A stretch of DNA of 64,000 nt, from contig NC_057718.1 in assembly GCF_004010195.1 (NCBI RefSeq), positions 39,860,579 to 39,924,578 of the forward strand. The letters run 5' to 3'. The notes below the pieces were generated by a model, which saw nothing but the letters and a program-made list of their open reading frames with translations, was not told the DNA's origin and did not search any database. The position numbers were made by a program, and so were the translations under genes. Positions 3,900 through 52,542 of the stretch are shown here, in pieces (the first letter of the stretch is position 1; the number at the start of each line of letters is the position of its first letter). The stretch comes from Chiloscyllium plagiosum. Lineage: Eukaryota.

Positions 3900-4585
3900 C
3901 TAATAAGAGGACATTGGTAAGGCCACTATTGGAATACTGTGTCCAATTCTGGTCTCCCTGCTATAGGAGGGATGATATGAAATCTGAAAGGGTTCAGAAA
4001 AGATTTACAAAGATCTTACCGGGGCTGGAAGGTTTGAGCTATAGGGAGAGGTTCAATTTCTCTAGAGCGTCGGATGCAGAGGGGTGAACAGGAAGAAGTC
4101 TATAAATTCATGAGGGGCACAGATAGGGTGAATAGCCAAGGTCTTTCCCCTAGGGTAGTGGAATCCAGAAATAGAGAACATAGGCTTAGGGTAAGAAGTG
4201 AAAGATTTAGAAGGGACCTAAGGAGCAACTTTTTCCACACATAGGGTGGTGCGAGTACAGAATGAGCTGCCAGAGGAATTAGTGGAGGCTGTTACAATTA
4301 CAACATTTAAAAGGTGTTTGGATGGTTATATGAGTAGTGTTTAGAGGCATATGGGCCAAATGCTGGCAAATGGGACTAGATTAATTTAGAGAGAAAATGA
4401 GGTCTGCAGATGCTGGAGATCAGAGATGGAAATGTGTTGCTGGAAATGCGCAGCAGGTCAGACAGCATCTAGGGAACAGAAGAATTGACGTTTCGGGCAT
4501 TAGCCCTTCTTCAGCCCTTCTAGATTAATTTAGGATATTTGGTCAGCATGGACGAGTTGGACCAAAGGGTCTATTTCCATGCTGT
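3900..4585 (+). mobile_element. CR1 LINE 3' end, interrupted by a hammerhead-bearing insert
   Basis: LVRPLLEYCVQFWSP-coding stretch and a CR1 3' UTR (ggtcagcatggacgagttggaccaaaggg) shared with 19570-20045 and, inverted, 28812-28920. Confidence 0.85.
4390..4519 (-). mobile_element. Short Penelope-LTR-derived element, family A, with intact minimal hammerhead core
   Basis: 14 bp direct duplication ctagattaatttag at 4376-4389 and 4520-4533. Minus strand 4487-4514 = CTGAAGA-A-GGGC-TAAT-GCCC-GAAA-CG-TC. Confidence 0.8.
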
Positions 4586-5229
4586 GCAGCTCCATGATTC
4601 TATTAATGCATGGCACCAAAATCATTGTCTGTTACCTTTTAGCCTTATTGCAAGAACTCAGTTAAGATCAGGGACCCCGCCTTCTAGAATTTGTAAGCGA
4701 AAGCTGCCAATCACTCCCTCTCCCCTTACTCTTTAAAACTCTCCTTAAAAATCAACTACATGATATAAGTGCCTTAACCTTTACTTGTTCAGCTCAGCAT
4801 CTGTTTTCCTCATACCTCTGTGCCCAGAAACATTTTTCTATTTGAAGGATGTCATATAATTGAAGGTTATTTCATTAATACTCCATTTCATACAAAGAGG
4901 AGCCAGTTATTCTGCTTGTAAAGCCTGTTTCACATTCAATTTGATCATGACTAAAGTCTACCTCAACTATATTTACTCACATTGTTCCATCTCCCTTGAT
5001 ACCCTTATCTAACAAAACTGACTGATACCAGTCTTCAACATTTCAACTGATTCAGCATTCACAGCTTCTATGTTATGCAATTGCATGTTTGCATTGCTTT
5101 TGTATGGGGGAGAAGAGCTTTAGATTTCATTTCTAAATGGTCTGACGCAAATTTTATTTTTATCCACTTCTGGATGTTCTACAAGATGCAATAGTTTCTT
5201 TGTATGAATCATTTTAAAATTTCTCATTA

Positions 5230-6410
5230 GTTTGTGTGTTGATTGAAGTTATGAATTTGGCAACTCACGCAGCCAAGTTCAGCTTTAACGTTGCCATTAC
5301 ACACAAATAGATAGCGTTTCTCTAAGCCCAGCTCTCAAAAACATTGTAGGGTCATGGTTACTCTGATCAGATTTTTGATGCTGCACATGGGGCAAATTCA
5401 CAAAAACACTTTTGGAATGAGCAAAGATTATTCCAAATCACTGTGATGGGCAGGGGATCTCAAAACATTTGGCAGGTGAAGCTAGCCGTTTCATGCTGCT
5501 ACTTGTAACTGCAATACATACTGGTATTCTCCCCTAACGAGATGCTGCTCTGTAGCCAAAGGGATGTTCTAGCCATCACACGAATGGGTACTATGGTACT
5601 AGGAATTTCAGTGCTGATGCATTGCCAGATATGTAATCTGTACATCCCAATGACTGGCAGATCATGTCAAATGGTGCATTCCTTTGTAAGTTTGAAATAG
5701 GCAAAGTATTGACTGTACTCAACCAAGGAATCTGTGTTTGCAAAACTCAAAACATAATGCTCAACATTAGATATGATTCTGTGATTGGGCAGCACTTACT
5801 GAATAATCTCAATTGTGTCAAGAATTACACTAACAACTAACTTAAAGTAATCACTCAGGCTCACAATGCAGCTTACTTACACTTGCTAGAGACTGCATTG
5901 ATTCACAAACAGGGCCAATTCCGCTGAAGGCAAAACAAATTTGTCTAGACATTGCTCATTTCCAACTAAATAAAAGCTTAGCACATAATGTTCCCTGGTG
6001 CATTCTCCTAGCACATTTCAACCAAACTCAACTTGCCACTTTTGAATGTAAACAAGAGGTAACTGGTTCCTCAGACATTTCCACAGCAATGCCTTAATCA
6101 GAATCCACTTGCCAATCAATCACCACCTTATTTCTCATACTATATACAATGTTGTTCCCTTTGAAAAGTTTCAACAGCAAATTTATTTTTTATCAGCAAT
6201 ACCTGCAGATGCTCAATATCTGAAACAAAAACAGAAAGTACTGGGAACACTCAGCTGGTCTGGCACCATCTGTGGATAGAAAAACAGAGTTAGTGTTTAA
6301 GGTCAATGATCCTTCATCAAAATATTCTGATACAGGGTCACTCACCTGAAACATGACCTCTATTTCAGGCCTGGCAACAGACCTGCAGAGCATCTCCATC
6401 ACTTTCTGTC
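5230..6410 (+). mobile_element. Decayed Penelope-like retroelement (RT remnant, GIY-YIG endonuclease remnant, inverted pLTR)
   Basis: Translated remnants IEVMNLATHAAKFSFN...TQID...LSPAL (RT) at about 5240-5345, and EFQC..ARY / DSVIGQHLLNN..CVKNYT...LHLLETA (GIY-YIG-type C-terminus) at about 5600-5945. Followed by a degenerate fold-back LTR-like segment at 6195-6410. Confidence 0.65.
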
Positions 6411-7720: not shown

Positions 7721-7776
7721 TTTTGGTAATTATTTGTCTTTAGTCCTTTGAATAGTGATGACCTTTACTCAGTAAA

Positions 7777-8089: not shown

Positions 8090-9707
8090 GTCTCATTGTT
8101 CAATGGTCAAATATCATTTGGATTCTAAACATCTAAAACAATAGTGCATAGAGCTTTATAAACACTGATGTTAATTGGTTTCCTTTCCTCTCTGACATCC
8201 CTGGGAAGGTTTTCAGCTCCAAGCCGATTCCTCTCCCAATTTTTAACTATAGAATTATTGCTCACTTGCAGAACTAATTCCATCCCTACAGATAGGACTC
8301 TCCAGCACTGGCTTCTCCTTCTTGTTCTGCACTGTCAACGAAGTCCTCTGTCCCACACTTTAACCCTCGAATTGTTGTCATTTATTTGACTAGGTCATTT
8401 TCATATGTTTAGGAAATCTAGTTTGCTCAATGACTTCTTCCCAATATTACATTTACCTTTGTACTCTCTGCCTCCCCTGGGAATTTGCAATTTCCTTCAA
8501 GTGCATATTGGAAAGACTGAAGTCCATCGATTACGCACCATACCACTAACGCCATCGCTATCCCTGACCAGTCCTTTCAATTTAAATCTAATCAGAAACT
8601 CAGTGTCATGTTCAACCATGAAGCACACTTCAAACTCAACACTCTCTGCCATTACCAATGCGCTCATTTTCACCAATTCAGTCTCACATTAACCACAAAC
8701 ACTCCCTGCGCTACCTCTTATTTTTTTTTCCCATTCTTGGCATCAAAAATAGTACCAAGAGGAGGTCAGGGAGAAAAAAAAACGAGCAGAAATAGTGAAA
8801 TCTGTTGGATAAACAGAATCTAATATCTAAACTGCTTCAGAGCAAACAGGAACTATAGAAAAACCTGAACCCTGCAGAAATCTTACTAAGGCTGCACAGT
8901 CATGATTTTGAGCAACGTGATTTTTGAAATCATTCCAACTGCGAACAGGCATGAGTCAGCTAATTTTGAAAGCAAATGCCACAGCCTAGAAGTTATTGGT
9001 ATAATCCAAGCTCTCATCTTGGCAATTGGGCACTGCTGTCAGAAAAGCAACCAATCTCATAGTAGTCAGGTTTAAATACATTTTAGGCACAACAGTGATC
9101 AAGAAGTCTTCAACACAAGGAGCTGTGTTTTACTTTTGAGAGTGACGTGAGAAAATACAACTTTTTAAAGAAACAAATGGCTTGATTGCCACTTCCAACA
9201 ACTGAGACTCTGCAGGCGTTTTCACTGTAGAAATATTTCCACAACATGTATTTTTAGTGCATTGTGGCCACATTTAGCTTATTATTTACTTGACAAAGGT
9301 GTCCAAACACCATCGACATTCCTATTTTAATGCAATATGACCCGACCTAATTTAAACGCCGTGCTCTCTGCAACCCAAAATCGACAGTTAATTTTCTTTC
9401 AAAACTTGACAGAAGTCTGGAAAGGCTATATCAGATTGGAAATTGGCAAATGTGATTCCGCTATTGAAGGAAGGAGGGTTACAGAAAGAAGTACAGGTTG
9501 TTAACTCATCGTATCTTCAAAGAGTCAATGCTGGAATCGATTATTGAGGAGGTTATAGGTGGGGAAAAACCTCAAAATAATCAGGTTGAGTGTATATGAT
9601 TTTGTTAAACCAAAATCACATTTCATAATGTCTTGGAATTCTTGAGAATATAAACATCAATGTGGAAATGGGAAACTATGAATACTTAGATTTCCAGAAG
9701 ACATTTG

Positions 9708-10283
9708 GAATCATTGAGATGTACAGCACGAAAACAGAACCTTCGGTCCAACTTGTCCATGCCTACCAGATATCCTAAATTAATTTGCCAGCACTTGGCT
9801 CATATCCTTCTAACCCTTCCTCTTCATATACCCATCCAGATGTCTTTTAAACGTTGTAACTATACCAGCCTCCACCACTTCCTCTGGCAGCTCATTCCAT
9901 ATGCATCACCTGTTGCGTGAAAACGTTACCCCTGAGGTCCCTTTTAAATTTTTCCCTTCTCACCCTAAACCTATGCCCTCTAGTTCTGGACTCCCCCACC
10001 CCAGGGAAAAGATCTTGTCTATTTACCCTATCCATGCCCCTCTATCAGGTCACCCCTCAGCTTCTGATGCTCCAGGGAAAACGGCCCCAACCTGTTCAGT
10101 CTTTTCCTGTAGCTCAAATCCTCCAACCCTGGCAACATCCTTGGAGATCTTTTCTGAACCCTTTCAAAAGTTTCACAACATCCTTCCAATAGGAGGGAGA
10201 CCAGAATTGCATACAATATTCCAACAGTGGCCTAACCAATGTCCTGTACAGCCGCAACATGACCTCCCAACTCCTATACTCAA
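9708..10283 (-). mobile_element. CR1 LINE 3' end
   Basis: Reverse complement of the same 3' end seen at 3900-4585; ORF fragment RVQKR..RMLPGLEDLSYRKRLNRLG.FSLE. Confidence 0.88.
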
Positions 10284-10314
10284 CAACCTATATTAATGTC
10301 TTGGAGGAAATGAT

Positions 10315-10405: not shown

Positions 10406-11313
10406 TGCATATATAGTTCTAAATTTGCTGATGACAAAGATATATAGGAAAGCAAACTGAGAGGAAAACAAAAGCAATCTTCAAAAGGGATATTGACAGC
10501 TTAAGTCAGTAGTCAAAAATTTGGAGATGGAGCATGACGTGGATAAAGTGTAAATTTATCTACCCTGGTAGGAAGAATAGAAAGGCAGCATACTATTCAA
10601 AGAGAAAGAGATTGCAGAGCTTGGAAGTACAGAAGGATCTGGGTGCCCTAGTTCACGATTCACAAAAAAAGGTGATATATGGCTACAGAGGGAGATTAGG
10701 AAGAAAATGAATATTGTTGATAGTGAGTGGAATGATATATAAAAGTAGGAATGTTATGTTGCAGTTGTACAATGAGTTGGTGAAAACTCTTTACCATTAC
10801 TTAAACAAGGATAGAAATACAATAGAAGCTAGTCAGAGAGGTTTAAATGAGCTAAAGTGACATGAGGAAAGTTATCTTCTAAGAAAAGATTGGACAGCTA
10901 GGTTTATATCCATTACAGTTTCGAAGACCGAGAAGTGACTTTATAAAAACATACAAGTTCCAGAGGATACATGATAGGGTGGATGCTCCAAAGATGTTAT
11001 CCTTGTGGGGCAGACTAGAATTGGGGCACCCAGTTTAAAAATGAGGTCTAATCTCCATTTCAAATGAGAAGAAATCTTCTCTCTCATTTAAAATGGAGAT
11101 TAGACCTCATTTTTCAAGAGTTCTAAAGAGTCTCAAACTTCTGAGAGAAAGAAGATTTCTTCTCTCTCAGAGGTTTGAGATTCTTTAGAACTCTCTTCCC
11201 AAGAAAGATATGGGGGGCAAGGTATTGAATATTTTCAGGCAGAGGTCGAGATTCTTGACTAACATGGGAGTCAAAGGTTATCTTGGGGTTAGGCAGGAAC
11301 ATGTGGTTGGAGC

Positions 11314-11402
11314 TGAAAATGTGTTGCTGGAAAAGCGCAGGTCAGGCAGCATCCAGGGAACAGGAGAATCGACGTTTCGGGCATAAGCCCTTCTTCAGGA
11401 AG
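11314..11402 (-). mobile_element. Family A hammerhead-bearing short element, intact core
   Basis: 14 bp duplication catgtggttggagc at 11300-11313 and 11403-11416. Minus strand 11371-11398 = CTGAAGA-A-GGGC-TTAT-GCCC-GAAA-CG-TC. Confidence 0.8.
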
Positions 11403-12189
11403 CATGTGGTTGGAGCCATGGTCAGATCAACTGTGAATTTACTGAATTTTCAAGCGACCAAATAGCCAACTGGTGTATGCAATTTGCATACTCACTTCTC
11501 TAAATTATGAACTCATTCGTGTAATTTTGATACTCACTTCGCAACATGCACGCACACACTTCAAGAAGTTAGTACTGCCTACATAATGCAGAACCGCAAA
11601 GCACACACACTCCCTATTAAACATATTGGGAAATGATGTACTGAGGAAAATAAGTCTCAAAACTTGATTAGAATAAAGCACATTGATCCTTCTAACCATC
11701 ACCAGTCTTACATGACCGCATATATGCACTAAAATGTTCTCTGATAACATCACTTTTCTGAGAAAGGCTTTGCTGCAGACCTATATCTAATATCTTGTCC
11801 ATTAGATCTATATTTACCTATCTTTGAACAGAATTCTGAAAGTAGAACATCCACAGCTCCTACAATCGCATGATGATTTGATTGCACGTTCAGAAACTTG
11901 TGCATATATAAAGAAGTTGGCATAAATAAGCTGTAGCAATTGTACAAGAAGTCTGTACAATGTATTGGCATGAATATATGAAAAATATATACTTTTGCTC
12001 AAAAAAACACCCATAGTGTTGACAGCAAGAAAGCTCACTCTGACAACTAATTGCAAAATATCAATTATAACAAAAAAAAAAGGTGCCAGGATTAGCAGCC
12101 TAACTTGATACAACAACTCCTAAAATGTATTATTTACCCTTAACTGATTTGCTCACAATCACTGTGATCTTTTGCATAGAGTGATACAA

Positions 12190-12732: not shown

Positions 12733-12899
12733 GGCGATCTGAGAAGATCACACTGCAGAGCTTCGCATCGCAGCAGGAGCAGGACGGTTCTTTAACCCAC
12801 CCAACCCAGGTCATCAGGATTTCTTGGGGCGTTGGAAAGATTGTGCAGCCCCAAGAAACATTTAAAAATTGACTTTCCTGTATTTTCAGCTGTTCAGAA

Positions 12900-13693
12900 A
12901 TGCCTATAAAGGGAGGAGGAGCATCGGAGGCCAGGCCTGCAGCTCAGCCTGCAGCAGCCTCAGAGCAGATTACTCTCCAGAACCTGGTGAACCAGCTTTT
13001 GAAATCTCGCAAGATGTTGGGGAAACAGATTGAAGAGAAGCTGGCTCCAGTCTCTCTCATGCTGCAGAAGCATGAGCAGCAGCTGGGAGACCTGGAGAAG
13101 AAGACGGATGAGGTGGAGCACAGGGTCACAGTGGTGGAAGCTGATGCCAGTTCATTCAAGGAAGAGATCCAAGCCCTGAAGATGCAGTTCGTAATTTGCG
13201 TGACCAAGTGGATGATCTTGAAAACAGTGGCAGGAGAAAAAACATTCGGATCATCGGTCTGCCTGAGGGTAAGGAAGGTGAGCAGCCTGCGGAATTTGTT
13301 GAAGATTGGCTTCCGAAATTCCTTAACTTGGAGACTGACATGAGAGGATTGAAGATAGAGAGGCCTCACCGGATCACAGCACGGAGGTCGGGTCTCGGTC
13401 AACGCCCTCATCATTACCGGGATAAGGAGAGAGTCATGGAGGCTTCCAGACTCCAGGGGAAGGATCCAAAGGCCCTAATTTACTAGGGATCTAAGATCAT
13501 GTTTTTTCAGGACTTTTCAGCGGCGGTGATCCAGAAACGAAAATCGTATGATGGTGTCAAGAGAAAATTGAAGGAGCTTGGGATTCAGTACTCCCTGAGA
13601 TATCCGACAGTGCTTCGGATCATCTTAGGTGGATCCATGCATCTCTTTGACACATCGGAGAAGGTAAGAGACTTTGTAGACAAACTAACCTAA
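12900..13693 (+). pseudogene. L1 ORF1 (coiled coil + RRM + CTD), frameshifted
   Basis: Heptad-rich N-terminus, DLENSGRRKNIRIIGLPEG, IERPHR, FFQDFS...KRK, YSLRYP. Split across ORFs 12900-13343, 13196-13486 and 13499-13693. Confidence 0.9.
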
Positions 13694-14297
13694 GTTAAAC
13701 AATTGTAGTATGTATAAATATTGTTGCTTGGGTATGCGTTTATCATTCTGTAGAAGAAATGGAGGAAATCTGGTTGGAGCTTTGTTTTTCCCTTTTTTTT
13801 CCCTCTATTGATAATAATTTGGTGCAAACTATGTCTGGTGGTGGTTAAGATGTACATTTTTAATTTCTAAATTAGGACATACCAAAGGATGGGTGGGGTA
13901 TTTATTCCCTTTTTTTTAATAAAATAATTTTTTTTTATTCATATTGATATTCTATGGGGTGTTTATTCTTTTTAGCTTGTGTTTGCGATGCGGCTCTAGC
14001 TGGGAGAAGTCAAGGTGGTTGAGATGGTTAGATGCTTATTTATGGGCAGTTCGGGACGGGTAGTTGCCCCTTCCGGGCAGGGGGTGAGTTCCCCTACTCA
14101 GCGCTATTGGTGCTTTATATGTTGGTTTGTTTTCTGGTTTTTGTTGTTCTTTATTTTTAATAATTTTGTATGTTTGTTAAATTTAGTGGTTTTAGTTTAT
14201 GTAGTTTTTATATTTGGTGGACCATGCCACACTAAGGCTCAGCAATTTGTGGTTCGGGTTCCTCCTCTCTGGAATTTAAATGTAATTGCAGAAGATT

Positions 14298-17200
14298 ATG
14301 GCTAATGATTTGATTAAATGGTATATCTGGAATATCAAGGGAAGTCACTCACCAATTAAGAGGAAGAAGGTACTCTTGAGTCTTAGAAAGGAGAAGGTGG
14401 ATATTGCTTTGTTACAGGAGACACATTTGGATGACAAGGAGCATCTGAAATTACAGCAGAATGGCTTTGACCAAGTTTATTTTTCATCATTTAATACCAG
14501 AAGTAGAGGAGTGGCTATATTGGTAAAGAAAAATCTCTCATTTAAATTGTTGGAATGTGTTAAAGACACATATGGGAGGCTTGTAATTCTTAAAGCCTTG
14601 ATAAATGGGGAAGAATATGGCATTTTAAATGTTTATTGTCCCCCAGCTCATCCTCTTAAATTCTTGGTAGATGCTTTTTCTAAACTGATAAGTCTCAAGT
14701 CTCGGCACATCATTATAGGGGGAGATTTTAACTGCCTTATGGACCCCACAGTAGACAGGTTGCCTAAAGATCTCTCAATACCCTCTGCACAAACTAAACA
14801 GTTATTGGGTCTGTGTGGGGAATTAGGATTGGTGGACGTCTGGAGGTGTCTCCACCCTACAGGTAGGGATTTCACGTTTTTCTCCAATTCGCATAGATGT
14901 CACACAAGGATTGATTTTTTTCTGACCCCTGCGGTAACCCTGGATCTGGTGGCATCCTGTACGATTGGTAATATTGCTCCAATGTACCTCATGGTTAAAA
15001 TTGCTCTGATCATGCTCCAGTGTACCTCATGGTTAAAATTAAGGATGTTACAGTGGATTCAAGGTACTGGCGAATGGACCCCTTTATTCTCATGGACAGC
15101 AAGTTTGTGGAGTATTTCTCTAAGGAATTTTGGGCATTCCTAGACATCAACATAGGCTCAGTTGATAGCTCATCTGTTCTCTGGGAAACTGCCAAAGCTT
15201 ATGCCAGAGGGTTAGTTATTTCATATTCCACAAGTAGGAAGCGGCAGAAGGGTGGGCAGCAACGTCTCCTTGAAGCACGGTTGAAGGCAGCCGAGAAGGC
15301 CTATTTTGACAGACCCTCATTGGTCAAACTACAGAGGATTACGGCACTGCGGTCTGCACTAAATTCCGTGCTTATGCAGATGGCAAAGAAGGAGCTGGCT
15401 TTTGCAAAGCAAAGGTTATAAGAGCATGGTGACAAGCCAAGCAAATACTTAGCATACCTTGCCAGAAAGAGAAGTGCCCCACAAACCATTACAGCGATTA
15501 GGGAAAGGTCTGGGAACCTAACATGTGATTTAAAAAGATTAATGTGGCATTCCAGAGATTCTACTCTAAGTTATATCAGTCTGAGAATTGTGAGGAGGGG
15601 CAGGCCAAAATGGAATCCTTTTTTAGGGATCTGAAGCTCCCGGGTGTGACTCCCAAACAACAGTCCTTTCTCAATGCCCCATTATCAGAGCAAGAAGTGC
15701 AGGAAGCTGTGAGGCAGCTTCAGAGTGGAATGGCGCCCGGTCCTGATGGACTTCCCAGTGAATTCTATAAGGAATTTATAAGTATACTGTCAGGCCGGAT
15801 GCTGAATATGTTTAATGATTCATAAGTCATCTTTGTCTCCCACCATCTCTGAGAGAGGCCAATGTTTCATTTATCCTTAAAAAAGGGAAGGATCCGGAAG
15901 ACTGTGCTTCATACAGGCCCATCTCGCTCTTAAATGTGGACTTTAAGATCCTCTCTAAGGCACTTGCATTAAGGCTGGAGACTGTGTTACCCTCTATTAT
16001 TAAAGAGGATCAGACGGGCTTCATAAAGGATCGCAGATCCTCCAATAACGTTAGGAGGCTGCTTAACGTAATTCAAGCATGCCAACAGCAGTCAATACAG
16101 GGATTGGTGATTTCTTTAGATGCAGAGAAGGCATTTGACCAAGTTGAGTGGCCGTACCTTTTCTATACTCTAGACTGGTTTGGTCTGAGCGAAGTTTTCA
16201 CAAGATGGGTAAAGGTTCTCTACAGTGTACCTCTCGCTGCAGTCATTATCAAGTAATTTTAATATTTCTAGGGGCAGCCGGCAAGGCTGTCCCCTTTCAC
16301 CATTACTTTTTATGTTGGTGATTGAACCGTTGGCAGAGGCCATTCGTGGGGATCTCAATATATCAGCTAAGATCTCGCTGTATGCAGATGATGTTCTAAT
16401 TTTCTTGACAAATCCAGCAGTCTCAGTGCCTTGCCTGATACAATGCATTCACGCATTTGGTGCTTTTTCAGGGTATAAGATCAATTTTGCTAAATCAGAG
16501 GCTATGCCTATGGGTGGTCTTATGAAAGAGTTGGCTCTTGAGAGTGACTACAGATTCCCATTTAGGTGGTTACAGGGGGGTTTTGTTATTTGGGCACATT
16601 CATTACTCCAGTTCTGGATTGGCTGTTCAAAGCCAATTTTACTCAATTACTTGAAAAATTAAACAAGATCTCCAAAGATGGGAGGCACTTCCAGTCTCAT
16701 GGTTGGGTCGGTTAGCGCTTAAGATGAATATTCTCCCTCGTTTGCTATACCCTATACAGATGCTCCCCTGATTTCCAATAAACAAACACTCAGGAGACTG
16801 AACAGTTGGTTCAGCTCCTTTATCCGGCAACGTAAACGGTTCCTCATTAAATTAGCCAAACTGCAGTTGCCTCACAGATTGAGGGGAGTAGACCTTCCAG
16901 ACATTAAAAATTACCAATTAAGCTCGCTTTTGGCCTACGTAAGTGATTGGGTTTGTGGGGACCCTCTTTCAATATGGCTAGATATCGAAGTCTCCCAGGC
17001 AAGGTGCCCCCTTACCAGTTTGCTGTTTTTGGACAAGGTGAGGACAGTTAGGGAATATTGCCATAACCCAATAGTCATCAATACTGTTAAAGCATGGAGG
17101 GCAATTCGGCAGAGGGAAGGTAATATTGGCAAAACATCTTTGTTTACACCTTTAGTGGGTATGCCGAGTTTTCAACCACGTATGATAGATTCAGGATTTA

Positions 17201-18080
17201 AACTTTGGGCAGCTAGGGGTGTATCTTGCATGGGTGATTTATTTGAGGAAGATATAATGATGTCCTTCGATCAGTTAGTACGGAAGTACAAGTTACCTAA
17301 TAGAGACCTCTTTCGTTTTTTTCAAGTTAGGAATTTTATTCAAAAAAAGACCACACTTTTGACTGATCCCTACAAATCTTGCATAGAAAGAGGGTACTAA
17401 GGGCTAAGAGTACCCTCTCTGTCAGTACTCTATATCATCAATTGGGGGGTGCCACCTCAAATGAGTCTGATCGACTCTGCAAGATGTGGGAGAGAGATCT
17501 GGGTGTTGAAGTTTCATCAGACACATGGGAGGATATTTGGGAGAATGCAAGGAAGATATCAATTTGCAATAGGACCCATGCTTTACAGTTGAAGATTCTC
17601 CACAGGGTCCACTTAGCCCTAGACCGTTTGTCAAAATTTAAACCAGGGGTATCTTCAGCATGTCCCAAGTGCAAGGTCTGTACGGGTACTCTTACCCATT
17701 GTCTTTGGTCTTGTGACACGCTTCAAACATATTGGAGTGCTGTGGTGGGTGCAATGGAGAGGATTTTAGGTGTAAGGGTGAAGAAGGACCCTATTTCCCT
17801 CCTTTTGGGCCTACCCATTGTATTTCCTGCAGACTCGCATAAGGAAAAACTTTTCAATATTCTTACATTCTGTGCAAGGAAGAATATCTTGCTAGGTTGG
17901 ATATCAGAAAACCCCCCAGGCCTATCGGGTTGGCGGAAGATTGTTATGGAGCATTTTCCCCCGAATTTTCTCACAAATATGGTACACCACAAAACTGAGA
18001 ATTTTTACAAGACATGGCAACCCTTTTTGAAATACCTGGACACAGATTTATCTGCCACACTAACAAGGGCTTTTATATAG
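14298..18080 (+). pseudogene. L1 ORF2 (APE endonuclease, reverse transcriptase, C-terminal CCHC), multiply disabled
   Basis: WNIKG, LQETH, GGDFN, RIDFF, SDH (EN); PGPDG, YRPISLLN.D.KI, LDAEKAFD, RQGCPLSP, YADD (RT); CPKC-x8-H-x4-C. Several frameshifts and stops. Confidence 0.93.
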
Positions 18081-18420: not shown

Positions 18421-18680
18421 AAAGGCATTTAGCACATTAGCCTTCATTGCTCAGACCTTTGAGTATAGGAGTTGGGATCGAGAGTGTGGTGCTGGAAAAG
18501 CACAGCAGGTCAAGCAGCAGAGGAGCAGGCAATTCGACGTTTCGAGCAAAAGCCTTTCGAGCAAAATCTGGAATCAGCACCACAACTTTTGACTTTGATC
18601 TCCAGCATCTGCAGTCCTCACTTTCGCCTATAGGAGTTGGAATGTCATGTTGAGGTTACGCAGGACATTGGTGAGGCACA
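18421..18680 (+). mobile_element. CR1 fragment, right part, interrupted by a family A insert
   Basis: aaggcatttagcacattagccttcatt...gtcatgttgagg...ggacattggtgagg continues the CR1 ORF2 broken at 12732. Confidence 0.8.
18476..18628. mobile_element. Family A short element, inverted pair, internally deleted
   Basis: 12 bp duplication tataggagttgg at 18464-18475 and 18629-18640; carries the family terminus ctccagcatctgcagtcctcacttt. Confidence 0.78.
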
Positions 18681-18995: not shown

Positions 18996-19131
18996 ATGAT
19001 TTGGAGGTGCCGGTTTGGGCTGGGGTGTACAAAATTAAAAATCGCACAACATCAGGTTATAGTCCAACAGGTTTATTTGGAAGCACTAGCTTTCGGAGCG
19101 CTGCTCCTTCATCACCACCTGATTTTTAACT
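18996..19131 (-). mobile_element. Family B hammerhead-bearing short element (core damaged)
   Basis: atgatttggaggtgccgg...aagcactagctttcggagcgctgctccttcatca; flanking near-duplication ttgaacatatc / ttgaatatatc. Minus strand TGATGA-A-GGAGC-AGC-GCTCC-GAAA-GC-TA lacks C3. Confidence 0.78.
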
Positions 19132-19144
19132 TTGAATATATCAA

Positions 19145-21390: not shown

Positions 21391-21399
21391 AGTATTGGA

Positions 21400-23953: not shown

Positions 23954-24152
23954 ATGATTTGGAGATGCCGGTGTTGGACTGTGGTGGACAAAGTTAAAAA
24001 TCACACAACACCAGGTTATAGTCCAACAGGTTTAATTGGAAGCACTACTTCGGAGCACTGCTCCTTCATCAGGAACCTGATGCTAGTGCTTCTCAAAGCT
24101 AGTGCTTCCAATTAAACCTTTTGGACTATAACCTGGTTTTGTGCGATTTTTA
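23954..24152. mobile_element. Family B short element, head-to-head inverted pair
   Basis: Long inverted repeat centred near 24075; flanking duplication acgatagtcctt (23942-23953) / acgatagttctt (24153-24164); degenerate CTGATGA...GAA cores. Confidence 0.82.
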
Positions 24153-26014: not shown

Positions 26015-26190
26015 AATAAAAACTAAAGAACTGTGGATGCTGTAAATCAGAAACAAAAACAGATGTTGCTGGGAAAGCTCAGCAGGTCTGGCAGCATCTG
26101 TGAAGAGAAATCAGTCAGTCTTTCAGGTCTGGTGACCATTCCTCAGATGTCAACAAGGGTCAACAGACTCAAAACACTGACTCGCATTTC
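26015..26190. mobile_element. Older Penelope-LTR-like fold-back remnant
   Basis: aagaactgtggatgctgtaaatcagaaacaaaaacagatgttgctgggaaagctcagcaggtctggcagcatctg is related to family A. Confidence 0.55.
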
Positions 26191-34016: not shown

Positions 34017-34248
34017 GGGAGAAAGTGACGACTGCAGATGCTGGAGGTCAGAGCTGAAAATGTGTTGCTGGAAAAGCGCAGCAGGTCAGGCAGCATCCAA
34101 GGAGCAAGAGAATCGACGTTTCGGGCATGAGCCCGAAGAAGCCCGAAAAAATGCTGCATTCCTGAAGAAGGGCTCATGCCCGAAACGTCGATTCTCCTGC
34201 TCCTTGGATGCTGCCTGACCTGCTGCGCTTTTCCAGCAACACATTTTC
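34017..34248. mobile_element. Family A short element, young head-to-head inverted pair with one intact hammerhead core
   Basis: Near-perfect inverted arms of about 80 bp; 14 bp duplication agccattttaatat at 34003-34016 and 34249-34262. Plus strand 34162-34189 = CTGAAGA-A-GGGC-TCAT-GCCC-GAAA-CG-TC. Confidence 0.88.
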
Positions 34249-34470: not shown

Positions 34471-34489
34471 TCTTCCTCAAAGCTCACAA

Positions 34490-40910: not shown

Positions 40911-41120
40911 GATCAGTGTGGTGCTGAAAAAGCACAGCAGGTCTGGCAGCAACTGAGGACCAGGAAAATCAACATTTTGGGCGAAAGCATTCCTGATGAA
41001 GGGCTTTTGCCCAAAACATCGATTTTCCTGCTCCTCGGATGCTGCCTGACCTACTGAGCTTTTCCAGCACCACTCTGATCTAACTCTGGTTTCCAGCATC
41101 TGCAGTCCTCACTTTTATCT
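40911..41120. mobile_element. Family A short element, inverted pair, CpG-decayed core
   Basis: 15 bp duplication acttctacttgttaa at 40896-40910 and 41121-41135. Plus strand CTGATGA-A-GGGC-TTTT-GCCC-AAAA-CA-TC at 40993-41020. Confidence 0.85.
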
Positions 41121-44100: not shown

Positions 44101-45526
44101 TCCCCCTTCCTCTTCCTGTCAGGCTACACAAGAAGTCTTTGCAAGACCAGAATGGCAGATTCCACAGATCAGCAAAAAGAAAACTGTGCAAAGTACATCT
44201 CATGGTTTCAATCATTTTAAGTTTCATTCTTACAATACATATCAGACCCCTGAAAACATGATGCAATTTTGTTTCAAATAACTTCATTCCAAGACACAAA
44301 AACAAGCCACTTTGCCCATCTGGTTTATGGCTGTGTTTCTACTCCACATCAATCTCTTCCCACTCTTCTGAACTATGAAAAATTGAAACGAGAAAGGGTT
44401 TGCCCTCATGCTAGCTGCAATAATTTGAAAACTGACTCTCTTTAAATGAATCAAAATAGTAATGAATTGGGTAATGGGAGATTTGGTCTTCACATCTCTA
44501 TTTGGTTATAGATTGCATCACTGACATATTACTGAAATAGTTTATGCTTCATTTAATTCTACATAATTATCCATAATAAAGTGCTTTAAACTATCTTTTA
44601 TTGACAGATAGGTCACATATGTATTGTGTTAACATAAATCTTGTTAGTTTTTAATTATGTAATGGTGAAAATGTTGCTCTGATCCTTTCACAAAATGATT
44701 TACCAAAGATACCTTCATATTTTCCTCACCTTTTGAAGCTCAGCATAAGCAATGTTGGCTACAATTTCAATTTTTACAAAAGCACTAATGTCTACCTTCC
44801 ATATATTATTCCCTTTTGCACAACCACAACCAAACTCAACTATTCAGCAATCCTCAACATAGACACAAAAAGAAGGAAAAGTGTTTCCATAATTTTTGAA
44901 ACCGAATTGTTTTTCAACTTAAAATCAACAATTGTTTTCTTTCTGATCACTGAATTTTCTAGTTAGTTTTCAGAGCATTCTGTAATAAAAATGTGCTTTT
45001 GTTATGAACTTAGCATTTGCCTCACAACAAAGGACAGGAAAGAATTTGGTATAATATTCAGTGACTGAAATCATTAATGACTTGTGATTTTGTCTTCTGG
45101 CTTAAATTTTATAGTGATCACATTCACAAATATATTTTGTGTTTACAACAGCTAAAGGACAACAATAAATAGCATCTTCACAATCATCTAAAGTAGTACT
45201 GACTCACAGTCAAAAGGTTAATAGCCAATACAACTCTTGCGAAAAACACTAAATATGATGGGAGATGAAAAACAAATGAGAATATTCTCGGCACCCAGCC
45301 AGCTACTCTTCTTGCCTTGAAACACAAGATTTATACAGTATTACTGCTTCAGGCCTACGCTGCTTGGTTTACACATGAATGCCAAGCTCACAAAAGCGCA
45401 AATCCTTTTTTCACTAAACAGTAATATTTCTGTGCATACAAATAGAAAACAAGCTAACTTGCATTTTCTTCATTGTTTCAATTATAAAGCTGCAAAATGA
45501 GTTTGTAATTGGAGATAAAACTTTAC

Positions 45527-45580
45527 CTTTTGTAGACTGGTAGGATTCAGCTGTGTTTTGTCAATTATTTTAACAGCAAC
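45527..45580 (-). CDS. MARK1: MARK1 coding exon 3 (VAVKIIDKTQLNPTSLQK)
   Basis: 54 bp, tttcag|GTT GCT GTT AAA ATA ATT GAC AAA ... CAA AAG|gtaaag. Contains the catalytic lysine motif VAVK and is in frame with exon 2. Confidence 0.95.
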
Positions 45581-46432
45581 CTGAAAATGATGTAAAGAGG
45601 AATCAGATTATTTATGAAAATATTTTCAATACTGAAATATTTTATTTCAAATGCACAATTTTATAACCAGATGTTCATAGGTATGAGACCCAAGATTGCC
45701 TGACATCCAAATCTGCTCCCTTCTTGTTCCGGCCAATGTCTTACTAAAGTATGCATTTTGTACACATAGGAGCCTGAGTGGGTGCAAGACCTGAAATCTA
45801 TTTAGGTACAGAGTCTTAAATAAAACTAATAATGCCTCTTGAAATATCAGGTGTAAAACTTTCAAGAGAAATCATAAAAATTCTGTGCAGTAATGAAATG
45901 GCTCAGTTTTCAACAAAATTGCTATCGACAAAATCTAACAGAGAAATAAAGAGAATACTGATGATACAACACACACAACCTTGGGTTACAATTCAACTAA
46001 CATAATTAAGAGTTACAACAGGATGTAAAGTGAAAAATTGGTTTTGATGGCATCACAGAACCAAAGCAAAAAACAGCTACATCCAGCAGTGTTAGACACA
46101 CGAGAGAGAAAGAGCAGAATATTGGAATAGTTGCTGCACTGTCCTGCATATTCTACCTGTAGGCTACATGCCTGTTTTGTTCTGCGACAGCCAGCACAAA
46201 ACAGAATGTGTGAACCAGCCATGAGTAGGTCAGCCTTCCAGGATAGTGGAAGGTGCATAGAAACAATAGTCCATGTGGAAATGAAATCAGAATTAAATAG
46301 GAATGTAAAAAAGAATAGAACATTTAAAACATATTTAAAAACAAAAATGAGTAAATAAAATTTCAATAGCAGTACCAATACAGCAGTGGTTGATAAAAAT
46401 GCTTTTAATATGAAGAAAACAATAAAACTCAC

Positions 46433-46636
46433 TTCTCTCCCAGTCAAAACATGTCGTGCTAATTTTACTTTTGCAAAGTTTCCTTTGCCTATAGTCTTCA
46501 GCAGCCTATAATTTCCAATGTGGGGTTGCTCTTCAGTCGTAGATGCCACTGAATTCCTGCATCGTGGTAAGTTTTGTCTGCTACTCGACTTGGAAGGCTG
46601 GATTTGTGAGTCACCATATCCATCAAGAGACGTGTG
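46433..46636 (-). CDS. MARK1: MARK1 coding exon 2 ([68 protein letters not shown]), start of the kinase domain
   Basis: 204 bp, phase 0, acceptor ttctgcag| and donor |gtgagt. Contains the Gly-rich loop IGKGNFAKV. The DGY...IQP.KSSSRQN.PRCRNS linker and ARHVL are MARK1-type rather than MARK3-type. Confidence 0.96.
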
Positions 46637-47806
46637 CTGCAGAAGTGGTCATGTACAATTTATATGGATTATTTCACAATAATTGATATCAGACTCTACA
46701 TTTTTAGTCACATACAACAACTTAAAATTTACAATATTTAAAGCTTTAAATACTTTCCATAGGAATTCTTGGACAAGACAGAAGGCAAATAAGTGTGCTG
46801 TCTCTACTTGATTGTCTTCAGCCTTATTGGTCACCCACATCAAAGCACCCTGACTGAAAACTTCAAAATATAAAACCAGATTCCTTCTCAAATTAACACG
46901 TGCAAAACTAAAATTCCTTACAATGCCCCCAATAGTACCTGTCAATGTTCCTCTGAATAAAAAGAGGGGGCAGTTGAGAGGAAAAGCATCAGCATTGAGA
47001 AGGCTCAGGCTAGGAAGGGGGTAAAATATACACTGCAACTAAATAATCAGTCGTCATAGAAAGAAAATTTGCACTAGCAATATTTTGATTTTGATGTAAG
47101 TTGCCGGATGGTGTGGCTGACCTTTAACCCTGCCAATGAGACGTCAGTTTTCATATGCCTTGCATCAACACATTTTCCTCTTCCAGATATACGGGGAGTG
47201 AAAGAATTGTGAAGGAAACACGTATAATAAGGCAGATGATGGTTTTATGTGTTGACAATCCAAGGGAAAGGGAGAAAAACTCCCACAATAATTGATCAAA
47301 CTGAAAAATACTGCGCCAGACGAAAAGTCTGCATTGAGCGACACTCAATAGGGACGGTGTTCTTTTGTGGTCCAGTAAACAACTCCTTGTCATTGAGCTG
47401 TTCCCTCCAGGCAAAGACAGCCTTAAATGGATATTCCCGAGCTGAAGGATATGGAGGAGGAGGAGGGGGGCAAAAAGCAGCAAACCAAAGGCAGAATTTT
47501 GAAATTAAGGCCGAAGGAAATAATCTGTCTTCAGAAAAGAATCCTTCCAGATTATACAGTGAGAGAGAGGGAGGCCTGTGTGATCGATGAAGCAGGCGAG
47601 TCAATGTCTCTGCTGCTTTCCAAGAGATTTCTTGTTTTTTTTTACAATAAAAAAATGCTGTAACCATCTCCCCGAGCACTCACACAGCCCTCCTTAACAA
47701 GAAACACACTCATTCTTTCAGCGAACGCCTTTTAAACCCCGCGTTCCCGACTAAAGCATTCACATAAAAGTAGCGAGAATAAAAAATGAAACATTGTCTC
47801 ACTTAC

Positions 47807-48330: not shown

Positions 48331-49007
48331 AGACACACTCTCTTTCCTGGACTTTGAGCAAAAAGGGCTCCAAGAAGTATTTAATCTGCCATCCTCCAAT
48401 ACAAATCAATACTTCAGCAGAATGACATTGACATGATCTCTTGTATCATAGTCCTTCAGTGAATACCATTTTATGGCTGAATATTATTCTTTTTCATCCA
48501 CCCATGCACAAAATGAAATGATTTTCTTTTTAAAAACAAAATTCGTATTCCTTGGAAGTTAAGGACAATTTATTCAGGCAATTTTATAACAAGGACAAAA
48601 CAACTGGTGGGCGTAAAGCAACCATGGCAGATAATAATTCAGAAGCTTTTGTGATTACAGAACGGATTATATCCTTTCGCCTGGTGATTATGTGCACGAA
48701 TTAATTCATGGAAATAATATCATATGGTCCCTCATCAGGTAATTGCCACCAAATTCCTTCTCACCTTCCAGTTGGATACAATGAAATCTGAACGACTTCA
48801 GTAAACTTCATTATGGCCAGCATGACTTCCAGTCACTATTGTGACTATAATCTTAATGATTGTAAACCAGCAATAACAAAGGCAAAACACTGCCGATGCT
48901 GAAGATCTAAAGTTAAAAACAAAAAAAACCTGGAAATACTTAGCAGTTGAGTCAGCATCTTTGAAAAGAGAAACAGAGGCTAGAATGGGACAGGCCTTGA
49001 ATGATGA

Positions 49008-49180: not shown

Positions 49181-50895
49181 TATTGCCTGTGGGCTGCAAT
49201 GCGAAATCTGAGAATTGCAAGCAAAGTTCAGTAAATTCAGTTGCATTTTCCAACAGTGTTCTCTTGAAAGTGGTAAAAGTATATTAAGTTGTTATTACCC
49301 TCATTAACACCACACCTCATAAGACCATAAAATATAGGAGCAGAATTTGGCCCATCAAGTGTACCCCACCATTTAATCATGGCTGATATGTGTCTCGACC
49401 TTATTCTTCTGCCTTCTCCCTGTAACCCTTGATCCTCTTACCAATCAAGAACCTACCTATCTTAAATACACTCAATGACTCCAAAGCCTTCTGTGGCAAT
49501 GAGTTCCACAGATTCACCACCCTGTGGCTGAAGAGATTCCTCCTCATCTCATTTCTCAAGGATTGTCCATTTACTATGAGACTGTGGCCTTGGGTCCTCA
49601 GCTCCCTAATAGTGGAAACATCTCTCTATTGAGGCCACTCAGTATTTTGTAAGTTCCACTGAGATCCCTCCCTCATCATTCTAAATGCCATTGAGTACAG
49701 ACCTGGAGCCCTCAACTGCTCTCACATGACAAGCTCTTCATCCCCAGATCATTGTTGTAAACCTCCTCTGGACCCCCTCCAACACCAGCACATCCTTCCT
49801 TAGATACGTGGCCCAAAACTGCTCACAATGTTCCAGAAGAAGTCCAACCAGAACCTTACACAGCCCCAGCAGTACATTTTTACTCTTGTAATCTAAATTT
49901 CTTGAAATGAGTGCTAATATTGCATTTGCCTTCTCGACTGTCAAATAAACTTGAGTGTTAACCTTAAGAGAATCTTAAACTAGGACTCCTAAGTCCTTTT
50001 GCGTTTTAAATTTCCGAAGCCTTCCCCCCCATTTAGAAAATAGTCTACATCTCTACACTTCCTCCCAAAATGCATAACCCTACACTTTCCCACATCATAT
50101 TTCATCTGCCACTTCTTTGCCCACTCTCCGAGCTTGTCCAAGTCCTTCTACAGCCTCCCCACTTACTCCACACTACCTGTCACTCAACTATTTTTGTGTC
50201 AGCTGCAAACTTAGCATCAGTGTCGTCCATTCAGATTATTAAGATATAAAGTGAATAGTTGTGGTCCCAACACTGAGCCCTGAAAACTCAGAAAATCCCG
50301 CCATTGCTGCTCCACCGTCTTCTCTGACAGGCTCCCCTTCCAATCAACTCTGGCCAGTCGTTCCCGCATGTCTTTGTAATTAACTTTACTCAATTCTAAT
50401 ATTGTTACATCTGATTCCAGCTTCTCGTTCTCAAACTACAGGGTGAACTCTATCACATTATGGCCTCTCCCTCCTGGGGGTTCCTTCACCATTAACTACC
50501 TAATCAGGTCTGCTTCATTACACATCACCAAATCCATAATTCCCTGTTTCATCGTGGGGTCCACCATAAACTGCTCCAAAAAAACCCCTAGATATTCCAC
50601 AAATTCCTTTCGTTAGGATCCACTACCAACCTGATTTTACCAGTCCATCTGCATACAGGAGTTCCCCATGATTATTTAGCATTGTTTTGCTTACATGCCT
50701 TTCCTATTTCCTGATTTATTTTCTATTCCATATTCTAAGCTTAAAAATGTGTTGCTGGAAAAGTGCAGCAGGTCAGGCAGCGTCAAAGGAGAAGGAGAAT
50801 CGACGTTTCGGGCATAAGCCCTTCTTCAGGAATCCCGAAACGTCGATTCTCCTTCTCCTTTGATGCTGCCTGACCTGCTGCACTTTTCCAGCAAC

Positions 50896-52350
50896 ACATA
50901 GAACATAGAACAATACAGCACAGAACAGGCCCTTCGGCCCATGATGTTGTGCCGAACATTTGTCCTAGCTTAAGCACCCATCCATGTACCTATCCAATTG
51001 CCACTTAAAGTTCGCCAATGATTCTGACTCTGCCACTCCCACAGGCAGCGCATTCCATGCCCCCACCACTCATTATTGGCCAGTTAACCTTCATATCTCA
51101 TTTTTCCTCTGCGTATTTCCTTCTTAGTAATCCTCTGTTGCTCTTTAAAAGCTTCCCAGTCCTCAGTTTTCCTAATTATCTTTGCTATGTTCTCCCTTTT
51201 CTCTTTTAACTTTATATGTTTCTTAACTTCCCTCGTCAGCCACGGCCGCCCATGCCTCCTCCTGGGATCTTTCTTCCTTTTAGGAATGAACTGATCCTGC
51301 AACTTCTGCATTATACACAGAAATATCCGCCATTGTTCCTCCACGGTCATCCCTGCTAAGGTATTGCACAATTGAACTTTGGCCAGCTCCTCCCTCATAG
51401 CTCCATAATTCCCTTTATTCAACAGAAATGCTGTCACTTCCGACTGTACCCTCTCCCTCTCAAATTGCAGATAGAAGCTTATTGNNNNNNNNNNNNNNNN
51501 NNNNNNNNNNNNNNNNNNNNNNNNNNNNNNNNNNNNNNNNNNNNNNNNNNNNNNNNNNNNNNNNNNNNNNNNNNNNNNNNNNNNNNNNNNNNNNNNNNNN
51601 NNNNNNNNNNNNNNNNNNNNNNNNNNNNNNNNNNNNNNNNNNNNNNNNNNNNNNNNNNNNNNNNNNNNNNNNNNNNNNNNNNNNNNNNNNNNNNNNNNNN
51701 NNNNNNNNNNNNNNNNNNNNNNNNNNNNNNNNNNNNNNNNNNNNNNNNNNNNNNNNNNNNNNNNNNNNNNNNNNNNNNNNNNNNNNNNNNNNNNNNNNNN
51801 NNNNNNNNNNNNNNNNNNNNNNNNNNNNNNNNNNNNNNNNNNNNNNNNNNNNNNNNNNNNNNNNNNNNNNNNNNNNNNNNNNNNNNNNNNNNNNNNNNNN
51901 NNNNNNNNNNNNNNNNNNNNNNNNNNNNNNNNNNNNNNNNNNNNNNNNNNNNNNNNNNNNNNNNNNNNNNNNNNNNNNNNNNNNNNNNNNNNNNNNNNNN
52001 NNNNNNNNNNNNNNNNNNNNNNNNNNNNNNNACCACCGAAGTAAGATTAACTGGCCTGTAATTCCCGGGGTTATCCCTATTCCTTTTTTTGAACAGGGGC
52101 ACAACATTCGCCCTCTCCAGTCCCCTGGTACCACCCCCGTTGACAGTGAAGATGAAAAGATCATTGCCAACGGTACTGCAATTTCCTCTCTTGCTACCCA
52201 CATAATCCTAGGATATATCCCATCAGGCCCGGGCGACTTGTCTATCCTCAAGTTGTTCAAAATATCCAACACATCTTCCTTCCTAACATGTATCTCCTCT
52301 AGCTTACCAGTCCGTTTCACACTCTCCTCTTCAACAATACGGTTCCTCTC
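50896..52350 (-). mobile_element. Younger CR1 insertion, internally deleted and spanning the assembly gap
   Basis: catagaacatagaacaatacagcacag tail; KSPGPDGIYPRI and ANVVPLFKK..RDNPGNYRPVNLTSV on -. Confidence 0.85.
51485..52030. other. Assembly gap (546 N)
   Basis: Run of n characters. Confidence 1.
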
Positions 52351-52542
52351 TCTCTCTCTATATCACATTTTTAAGCTCTGATCTCCAGCATCTGCAGTCC
52401 TCACTTTCTCCTATCCCATATCCTGACAACTGCTAGGAAGCCTGAATACAACTTCCATCAGGGTTTCTTTCCTTTGTAGTTCCTTAACTCTATCTGCACA
52501 AATTCTATACTTTCCAACTCTATATCACTTTTTGCTATTGAT

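Follow-up and report, generated by a model that had tools for sequence, protein, structure and literature searches.

Dispersed repeats with a minimal hammerhead motif in Chiloscyllium plagiosum, probable end segments of a Penelope-like retrotransposon

Results

Six related insertions at a MARK-family locus

The window, which is the whole 64-kb stretch of DNA analyzed here, contains two exons of a host MARK-family kinase gene and, by sequence comparison, six short repeats of 89–232 bp each that form one family (family A) and account for 1.6% of the window (Table 1). This agrees with an earlier note on the same DNA, which had described six related insertions of 90–230 bp at about one copy per 10 kb (6 per 64 kb). 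All six appear to be intronic in the MARK gene, whose sense is that of three intact cores (4487, 11371, and 50802) of the hammerhead motif considered below. The repeats at 50737 and 52410 are a single element that was later split by a LINE fragment, which we take to be CR1-like. A second family, family B, has the same hammerhead plan with other stems.

A target-site duplication (TSD) of 14–15 bp flanks each of the six insertions. Their TSD scores are 14, 14, 12, 14, 15, and 8, where 395 random sites gave a 99th percentile of 8 and a maximum of 10, and the score is 8 in two copies of family B. The comparison with reads and contigs took in one of the six sites (11314), and at the matching site a second species (run X12) is without the insertion (one contig; 1/1 sites tested). 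This contig aligns to 11213–11287 and 11403–11700, so that a single copy of the TSD is present.

Table 1. Features of the window, with the target-site duplication (TSD) of each insertion.
Feature	Position	Strand	Remarks
Single-arm copy, long tail	4390..4519	-	Core 4487-4514; begins at C3; helix I 5' strand missing; G1.1>A
TSD of 4390 copy	4376-4389 + 4520-4533		14 bp, exact
Single-arm copy, short end	11314..11402	-	Core 11371-11398; begins 3 nt before C3
TSD of 11314 copy	11300-11313 + 11403-11416		14 bp, exact
18476 element, older fold-back	18479..18628	.	Boundaries approximate; short-ended left arm with damaged core; right arm is long tail only
TSD of 18479..18628 fold-back	18464 + 18629		14/15 letters
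Fold-back	34017..34248	.	Left arm with long tail, 5' end +8; right arm with short end, 5' end -4, core 34162-34189 (+)
TSD of 34017 fold-back	34003 + 34249		14 bp, exact
Fold-back, second subfamily (N7=U, loop UUUU)	40911..41120	.	Short left arm, long right arm; G12>A in both
TSD of 40911 fold-back	40896 + 41121		15 bp, exact
Two exons of host MARK-family kinase gene	45520..46648	-	Ends near 46430 and near 45574; MARK3/1/4/2 chains, E 4e-19 to 2e-13
Fold-back, main part	50737..50899	.	Left arm short-ended, core 50802-50829 (-); right arm broken off at 50899
LINE fragment	50900..52363	-	Later insertion into right arm of 50737 element; 5-bp duplication; contains assembly gap 51485-52031
Long tail of 50737 element	52364..52410	+	TSD 12/14 letters at 50723 + 52411

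The hammerhead motif

In four family A copies the minimal type I hammerhead is preserved exactly, as 28-nt strings for which the coordinates and strands given in the earlier note (4487, 11371, 34162, and 50802) are all correct. The same four were recovered by a minimal-hammerhead descriptor, which gave five hits in the window, four of them with four or more base pairs in stem II and with a palindromic stub, while in 100 dinucleotide shuffles this strict class occurred at a mean of 0.03 per window with a maximum of 1. The fifth hit (46510–46536) has a 3-bp stem, lies inside a MARK exon, and was treated as chance. The core published for Penelope-like elements (PLEs) is present, namely CUGANGA-H, G10.1-C11.1 closing stem II, GAAA, the palindromic stub, and NUH. 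The assignment to the Penelope type in the earlier note stands, and the motif fits the consensus in Fig. S3 of Cervera and De la Pena (2014; PMC4209133), who described such minimal ribozymes (min-HHRs) in metazoan PLEs, in the extra nucleotide after A9, the G10.1-C11.1 pair, the palindromic stub, and a putative short helix I. No hammerhead family was among the 12 Rfam matches in the window at E up to 5, and the microRNA-like matches on the fold-backs were all under their gathering scores.

The helix II loops of the four exact copies are UAAU, UUAU, UCAU, and UUAU, so that the variation described in the earlier note was seen but UUUU is not part of it, being confined to 40911 and 18476, neither of which has an intact core. 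The constancy of stem and core that had also been claimed holds for the four selected copies but not across the family, where G12 is changed to A in both arms of 40911, G1.1 to A in 4390, and CUGA is lost from 18476.

Helix I, which in PLE hammerheads comprises 2–5 bp around the cleavage site, has three of four standard pairs in 34162 and 40993, two in 11371, and none in 4487. Upstream of C3, four letters common to three copies give just three of four standard pairs. In 50802 the pairing arithmetic of the earlier note was right (6/7 pairs), but the pairs form only via a junction, because the GGG belongs to the terminus of the inverted arm, and a native seven-pair helix I was rejected.

Predicted inactivity of the motif in place

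In their present positions the ribozyme motifs are predicted to lack activity, either because they are buried in a hairpin (P < 1e-10) or because helix I is lost. For the three fold-backs that contain a core, equilibrium prediction gave probabilities of 5e-20, 8e-16, and 1e-11 for a hammerhead-compatible fold. Dimer cleavage of PLE hammerheads was reportedly described by Lunse et al. in 2017. For family A the intermolecular stub is predicted to be worth only about -3 kcal/mol, and a modeled co-fold of two copies did not adopt the active form.

The working ribozymes envisaged in the earlier note would also be expected to show excess conservation of the core, and no protection over neutral sites was found among genomic copies, the core apparently decaying neutrally. 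The change G12>A amounts to 9.7, 13.7, and 14.7% in runs X1, X12, and X21, and the tolerated change C11.1>U to 9.4, 12.7, and 15.7%, so that family-wide the catalytic G12 decays at the pace of its CpG neighbor, and G16.2>A is no rarer than C15.2>U. The CpG at C17/G1.1 decayed less than other core CpGs in X1 (1.8 and 3.7%) but not in X12 (7.7 and 6.5%). The comparators are paired core positions, the tail CpGs at 11337 and 11354 being left out as they coincide with subfamily differences. Changes at the subfamily level are located in loop II and N7, a placement that fits constraint on the source elements only.

Among 2050 RNA reads there was no pile-up of ends or starts, in a poly(A) single-cell library of which about 2% was read and which is ill-suited to cleaved ends. 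Self-cleavage of the copies, as monomers or dimers, in host MARK pre-mRNA is very improbable: the cores at 4487, 11371, and 50802 lie in the host sense as it requires, but helix I is buried or lost, the stub is weak and the co-fold inactive, G12 is unprotected, the 11314 copy is absent from the related species, and monomers were without cleavage in the experiments given in PMC4209133.

Fold-backs, tails, and 5' ends

Four of the six insertions are head-to-head fold-backs and the other two are one arm with a full TSD. The arms are 82 nt and 99% alike in 34017, where about 23 nt of filler lie between them, and 66 nt and 98% alike in 50737, and each fold-back in the window has a different centre. 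There are two classes of 3' end, 35–40 nt apart, and the extension is present on one arm only of each fold-back; exactly one arm is long-tailed in all four fold-backs of family A and in all four of family B. The outer ends coincide with two tail positions that adjoin the TSD. Among the matches listed, the loose ends in RNA agree at 0.84 for the long class (344 reads) and at 0.55 for the short class (131 reads).

That these are MITEs with a hammerhead-like string by chance is scarcely credible. Palindromic structure (4/6), with arms up to 99% complementary, would suit it, but symmetric terminal inverted repeats and a fixed unit were not found: the ends are unequal, the tail is one-sided, and the centres differ. 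Cut-and-paste superfamilies are not known to have TSDs as long as the 14–15 bp seen here. In addition, family B repeats the hammerhead plan with different stems, and the single-arm copies with full TSD (2/6) largely refute the MITE reading. Two other candidates were rejected. For a tRNA-derived SINE, ARAGORN found 0 genes (a weak result for decayed heads) and what occupies the 5' end is the hammerhead; for a non-LTR retrozyme, head-to-tail tandems are 0/6 in the window, with single contigs that go back in X1 and X9 among the matches listed.

Five of the six insertions begin at -4 to 0 relative to C3. Among the matches listed, loose ends past 11401 agree at only 0.34 in both DNA runs, which indicates that most copies stop there, and a common upstream continuation in the DNA and RNA loose ends (agreement 0.34–0.47 among the matches listed) indicates that longer copies exist as well; a 22-base motif of this continuation was matched 0 times within the window. 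Copies of the family are very numerous, with 34,309 contig records in X1, contig depths not being copy counts.

These 5' ends bear on a true non-autonomous family, in which one or a few short master loci would give an RNA starting at the helix I edge for a Penelope protein to copy in trans. This is unlikely, although the clustered starts, the stop at 11401 and the great abundance are all in keeping with it, and both trans-mobilization of pLTR sequence (PMC3846280) and PLE-derived retrozymes (Li 2026, 10.64898/2026.07.22.740005) are reported in the literature. Against it, the unit is not constant (one or two arms, differing centres), the longer copies exist, there is no tRNA head and no tandem array among the six insertions, and the same stubs would be expected in cis from an RNA that carries an ORF and has its start at the edge of helix I. 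Of the ribozyme-bearing mini-elements moved in trans that the earlier note proposed, the Penelope hallmarks of the insertions stood, and the discrete unit, given the variable centres, the longer copies, the outer ends at the two tail positions, and the neutral decay of the core, was not supported.

Discussion

Origin of the repeats

The repeats are probably TSD-flanked insertions of one end of a Penelope-like retrotransposon, the segment from hammerhead to tail, and were likely put in place by the RT/GIY-YIG protein of that element; their motifs are predicted to be inactive in place. The six copies are best read as end stubs made at insertion rather than as a self-propagating family of mini-elements, because the one-sided tail with an inverted copy is the published Penelope-like signature. 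A point against this is the tight clustering of the 5' ends, which is unlike random truncation and also fits a short master RNA. The link to the enzyme is drawn from the architecture. The autonomous Penelope partner suggested by the earlier note, or its ORF, was not found in the window, as a GIY-YIG model had no match among the 141 window ORFs of at least 75 aa, and the four RVT_1 hits in the window ORFs are two in an L1 copy and two at about 29.6–30.2 kb. By pattern scan, copies of the family were absent from viral contigs (0 and 0), metagenome sequence (0), and prokaryote genomes (0); the 48 metagenome loci for a 19-base tail motif were attributed to chance, their best alignments to the element being at most 34 bases.

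Endonuclease-positive PLEs insert as a unit of a pLTR, an adjacent inverted 5'-truncated copy, and a 30–40 bp tail (Craig, 2021, 10.1101/2021.04.23.441226; Arkhipova, 2013, PMC3846280). Family A is like these units, as those two papers describe them, in its head-to-head arms, tail at one end, TSD, and strong 5' truncation, but it is reduced to the end segment, and its TSD of 14–15 bp compares with 8–10 bp in rotifers. The min-HHR copies of PMC4209133 were likewise mostly solo, with additional opposite-strand pairs 100–700 bp apart, and were interpreted as truncated PLEs; the family A sequence is missing from the 56 examples listed there, and no ORF-linked copy of family A was seen here.

Non-LTR retrozymes, which are reported from a cartilaginous fish (Cervera, 2020, PMC7229834; 10.64898/2026.07.22.740005), share with family A a non-coding, PLE-related sequence with a type I hammerhead. 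As presented in these sources, however, they are head-to-tail tandems with canonical hammerheads and circular RNA, whereas family A is single or head-to-head with the minimal motif.

A putative insertion mechanism

The Penelope protein would nick both strands of the target about 14–15 nt apart, and reverse transcription would begin inside the uncleaved RNA, either about 90 or about 130 nt downstream of C3. Synthesis would mostly stop at the edge of helix I, a limit probably set by the start of the RNA or by stalling of the enzyme. One priming would give a single arm, while priming of both strands would give two cDNAs joined head to head, the fold-back arising afresh at every insertion. The copies would then decay neutrally and ride as passengers in host RNA, their hairpins probably undergoing A-to-I editing.

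Parts of this scheme have a precedent in PAc, a Poseidon element of the green anole, in which both strands are cleaved and extended, hammerhead cleavage is dispensable in vitro, and two internal RT starts bound the tail (Frangieh, 2024, PMC11167929). Family A resembles PAc, so far as that paper describes it, in two putative sites of RT initiation that lie downstream of the hammerhead and delimit the tail, in the proposed use of uncleaved RNA as template, and in having no RNA-seq ends at the cleavage site. They differ in that the PAc ORF begins in stem II, whereas the ATG in the stem II loop of family A, read from the sequence, reaches a stop after about 26 codons, and in that PAc showed no difference in start site between the strands, whereas exactly one arm is long in 8/8 fold-backs here.

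The joining of two cDNAs has a rival in self-priming, in which the Penelope origin is kept and a single strand, cDNA or antisense template, would fold onto itself and be extended along its own sequence. This is rather unlikely. Arms are closer within an insertion (99% in 34017, 98% in 50737) than to other copies (≤97%), up to three letters fit either side of the joint at 11390–11401 in X12, and such junctions of rotifer elements were so interpreted in PMC3846280. But both arms have arm-private sequence in three of the four fold-backs (34017, 50737, and 18476), which self-copying cannot yield and which favors two priming events; only 40911 (1/4) is compatible with it, and the distinction could be obscured if the centre of the palindrome later underwent deletion.

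A more specific version of two priming events can be put forward tentatively. The insertions might be an in vivo record of the Penelope reaction, in which a dimer of the protein, bound to a single uncleaved RNA, would prime synthesis on each of the two nicked strands, one always from the far tail site and the other from the near one. Synthesis would run off where the RNA ends, its 5' terminus being fixed at the edge of helix I; the motif would then be hidden in the resulting hairpins, with ADAR editing the catalytic A13-A15.1. If true, this would explain the strict rule of one long and one short arm and replace the self-priming view of Penelope inversions. Among the papers listed by a literature search, none had "Penelope" together with "twin priming," and the idea may still be in print.

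A-to-I editing has been described for repeats such as Penelope in a lizard and palindromic Harbinger in a frog (PMC5625713) and for Penelope in Xenopus tropicalis (PMC10636886). Like those repeats, as these papers portray them, family A is self-folding and transcribed within host RNA, and its hairpins may be edited as well, as is suggested by a single RNA run that was not matched with DNA from that individual.

Relation to known families

Scattered minimal hammerheads from truncated PLEs, the architecture of inverted copy plus tail, and Penelope editing are all already published. Family A is hence a further case of a known pattern, and the supplements of two bioRxiv preprints may list the family. 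Such copies risk being wrongly annotated, as MITEs or as microRNA hairpins, or being included in counts of active ribozymes. Being so abundant, family A also offers a large natural sample for the study of how inversions form and of what determines the position of the 5' end near the ribozyme. Among the matches listed, opposite-strand joints were found in runs X1, X12, and X21, and the inversion joint at 11390–11401 recurs in at least 10 contigs of X1 and at least seven of X12; such recurrent joints could be hot spots or re-amplified hairpins.

Family A Carries a Hammerhead Motif in Penelope-Like Architecture

Family A is real, comprising ten arms in six insertions as defined by self-BLAST and alignment, and the earlier note was right as to its hammerhead motif and Penelope origin. 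The four 28-nt hammerhead strings described in the 4390, 11314, 34017 and 50737 insertions lie exactly at the positions given. A minimal-hammerhead descriptor gave five matches in the window. Four of them combine a palindromic stub with a stem II of 4 bp or more, a class that averages 0.03 per shuffled window and never exceeds one in any of 100 shuffles. The motif agrees with the minimal-hammerhead consensus in a published supplement (Cervera and De la Pena, 2014; PMC4209133), and this agreement extends to features that its authors list as occurring outside their descriptor. An Rfam search with E up to 5 returned no matching hammerhead model. The core, described as constant, is not so over all six insertions: G12 is changed to A in both 40911 arms, CUGA is lost in 18476 and G1.1 is changed to A in 4390, while the UUUU loop assigned to intact-core copies lies in the two whose core is not preserved.

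Four of the six insertions are head-to-head fold-backs with their 3′ ends outward. The 3′ ends fall into two classes 35-40 nt apart, and every fold-back has exactly one long arm. At RNA loose ends, 344 reads of the long-tail class carry on into the tail (agreement 0.84) and 131 of the short class depart near the short end (agreement 0.55). A second family, B, is built to that plan as well: its hammerhead is different (5-bp stem II, AGCU stub, 3-bp helix I), but each of its four fold-backs has one long arm and hence a one-sided tail; two of the three copies tested have 14-bp imperfect target-site duplications (TSDs). The plan of both families is that described for Penelope-like elements, in which a 5′-truncated copy lies in inverted orientation beside the 5′ end and a tail of 30-40 bp is confined to one end (Craig, 2021; 10.1101/2021.04.23.441226). 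No GIY-YIG match was found among the 141 window ORFs of at least 75 aa, and hence Penelope membership rests on architecture and motif, with no linked ORF. Family A copies were absent from the viral, metagenome and prokaryote collections searched. Three relatives that share a similar tail are older and more decayed.

Features in the window (positions in nt)
Feature	Position	Strand	Remarks
Family A insertion	4390		core at 4487
Family A insertion	11314		core at 11371
Family A insertion	18476		
Family A insertion	34017		core at 34162
Family A insertion	40911		core at 40993
Family A insertion	50737/52410		core at 50802
Family B fold-back	18997-19135		
Family B fold-back	23956-24154		
Family B fold-back	27086-27265		
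Family B fold-back	28348-28531		
Older relative	6208-6409		inverted ends at 6231-6409
Older relative	26015-26140		
Older relative	48875-48980		
MARK-family kinase exon	46427-46648	minus	MARK3/1/4/2 chains, E 4e-19 to 2e-13
Second MARK-family kinase exon	near 45574	minus	
L1-like LINE, long copy	12873-18080	plus	broken frames; endonuclease and RT matches
Endogenous-retrovirus-like stretch	60500-64000	plus	Gag p30 (weak), RNase H and integrase matches
Pair of near-perfect hairpins	11034-11194		arms 36 nt and 32 nt (94%), loops alike

Copies Are Insertions and Are Abundant

Direct repeats of 14-15 bp flank all six insertions, with scores of 14, 14, 12, 14, 15 and 8; at 395 random sites the 99th percentile is 8 and no score exceeds 10. 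Published examples of the Penelope-like plan have duplications of 8-10 bp (Arkhipova, 2013; PMC3846280). The sequences at 50737 and 52410 are a single element with a common duplication, split by a later LINE piece. Four read runs were aligned to 11200-11700. Two contigs from organism A span both junctions of the 11314 copy without difference and the copy is therefore no assembly error, although this run and the assembly may derive from one and the same sample. One contig from organism B aligns to 11213-11287 and, 11 letters further along, to 11403-11700; this is an empty site with a single duplication copy. Family A copies are thus insertions. They are also very abundant in both species, given 34,309 and 30,179 contig records on the 89-bp 11314 element in DNA runs X1 and X12 against flanks at a single-copy depth of ~17, these records not being copy counts. 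The 4390 copy is nested in another dispersed repeat (3908-4389 and 4520-4601), and uninterrupted relatives of that repeat at ~9700-10245, 19570-20045 and 28813-29300 are the in-window equivalent of an empty site.

Fold-Backs as Probable Products of Insertion

Family A is probably not the self-contained family of ribozyme-bearing mini-elements that had been proposed, as every fold-back centre differs and both outer ends are tail positions abutting the duplication, as would follow were the fold-back to arise in the course of insertion. Measured from C3, the first core nucleotide, the arms begin at 0, -3, +5, +72, +8, -4, +16, -4, -4 and +17. The short-tailed arm extends further 5′ in 34017, 50737 and 18476, so that each arm holds sequence absent from the other; this is impossible for cDNA self-copying and possible with two priming events, though later deletions could blur the test, and 40911 is compatible with either. 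Arms within one insertion are 99% and 98% identical, versus at most 97% to other copies, as could result from a single RNA template or from subsequent homogenisation. In vitro, a Poseidon protein cuts the two DNA strands and extends each of them, begins synthesis at two sites within the RNA that delimit the tail, and does not require hammerhead cleavage (Frangieh, 2024; PMC11167929).

Five of the six insertions start within 4 nt before C3. The largest loose-end class among those listed lies at 11401 (682 X1 contigs and 667 X12 contigs) and pools all copies reaching -4 or beyond, since the next base of the reference is a private mismatch. Agreement past this point is 0.34 in DNA and 0.47 in RNA, indicating that most copies end at this position and that only a minority runs on into shared upstream sequence. 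Such clustering fits an RNA start or enzyme stalling at helix I, and is also compatible with copying of a short master RNA in trans, which we consider unlikely. The first 1-4 TSD letters often equal the element's own next letters (arm ends 4390, 18628, 34017, 41120, 52410, 11314 and 34248), which suggests, by a partly circular argument, that primer and template pair over a few bases as reverse transcription begins.

Ribozyme Activity in Place

When each motif is folded with its native flanks, the predicted probability of a structure with stem II present and an unpaired core is 5e-20 for 34162, 8e-16 for 50802 and 1e-11 for 40993, the motif being paired with the antisense arm. In the two single arms it is ~1e-4, helix I being absent (4487) or of two pairs (11371). 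The long helix I proposed for 50802 takes its GGG from the inverted arm. Family-wide, CpG decay is as frequent at the catalytic G12 as at its tolerated neighbour C11.1 (9.7% vs 9.4% in X1, 13.7% vs 12.7% in X12, 14.7% vs 15.7% in RNA reads). Common subfamily differences are located at N7 and in loop II, a pattern that fits constraint acting on the source elements and not on copies. As counter-evidence, decay of the C17/G1.1 CpG is lower in X1 (1.8% and 3.7%), but this does not hold in X12. Of 2050 RNA reads on both strands, 99% continue into unrelated sequence, and the absence of a listed end pile-up among them is weak evidence given the library type and 2% sampling.

Possible A-to-I Editing

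Family A RNA reads of run X21 have an excess of A>G and T>C at 11322-11386, including GAAA of the core. These changes make up 22 of 53 variable places in X21, and the DNA runs give 6 of 27 and 4 of 30, a comparison in which reads are not independent and RNA and DNA are not from the same animal. At each of the six T>C places listed, the change is more frequent in RNA (4-18%) than in DNA (0.03-4.3%), and five of these places, A13, A14 and A15.1 among them, are skewed to the hammerhead-sense mate direction under the usual library convention. Of five listed A>G places, one has the expected skew, one the opposite and three none, and some non-editing changes are likewise raised in RNA. On balance we lean towards A-to-I editing of family A RNA. 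It would be no novelty, as Penelope repeats are heavily edited in a lizard (PMC5625713) and in Xenopus tropicalis (PMC10636886).

Genomic Setting

The window is vertebrate DNA of 40% GC in which no tRNA was found, and its SINE and LINE sequences suggest a shark-like fish as host. No later MARK exon motif was found in it after the two minus-strand exons, from which we infer that the family A insertions are intronic within a MARK-family gene. The retrovirus-like matches lie in separate frames, so that this stretch is broken. The adjoining hairpins at 11034-11194, 120 bp from the 11314 copy, are unrelated to the hammerhead families.
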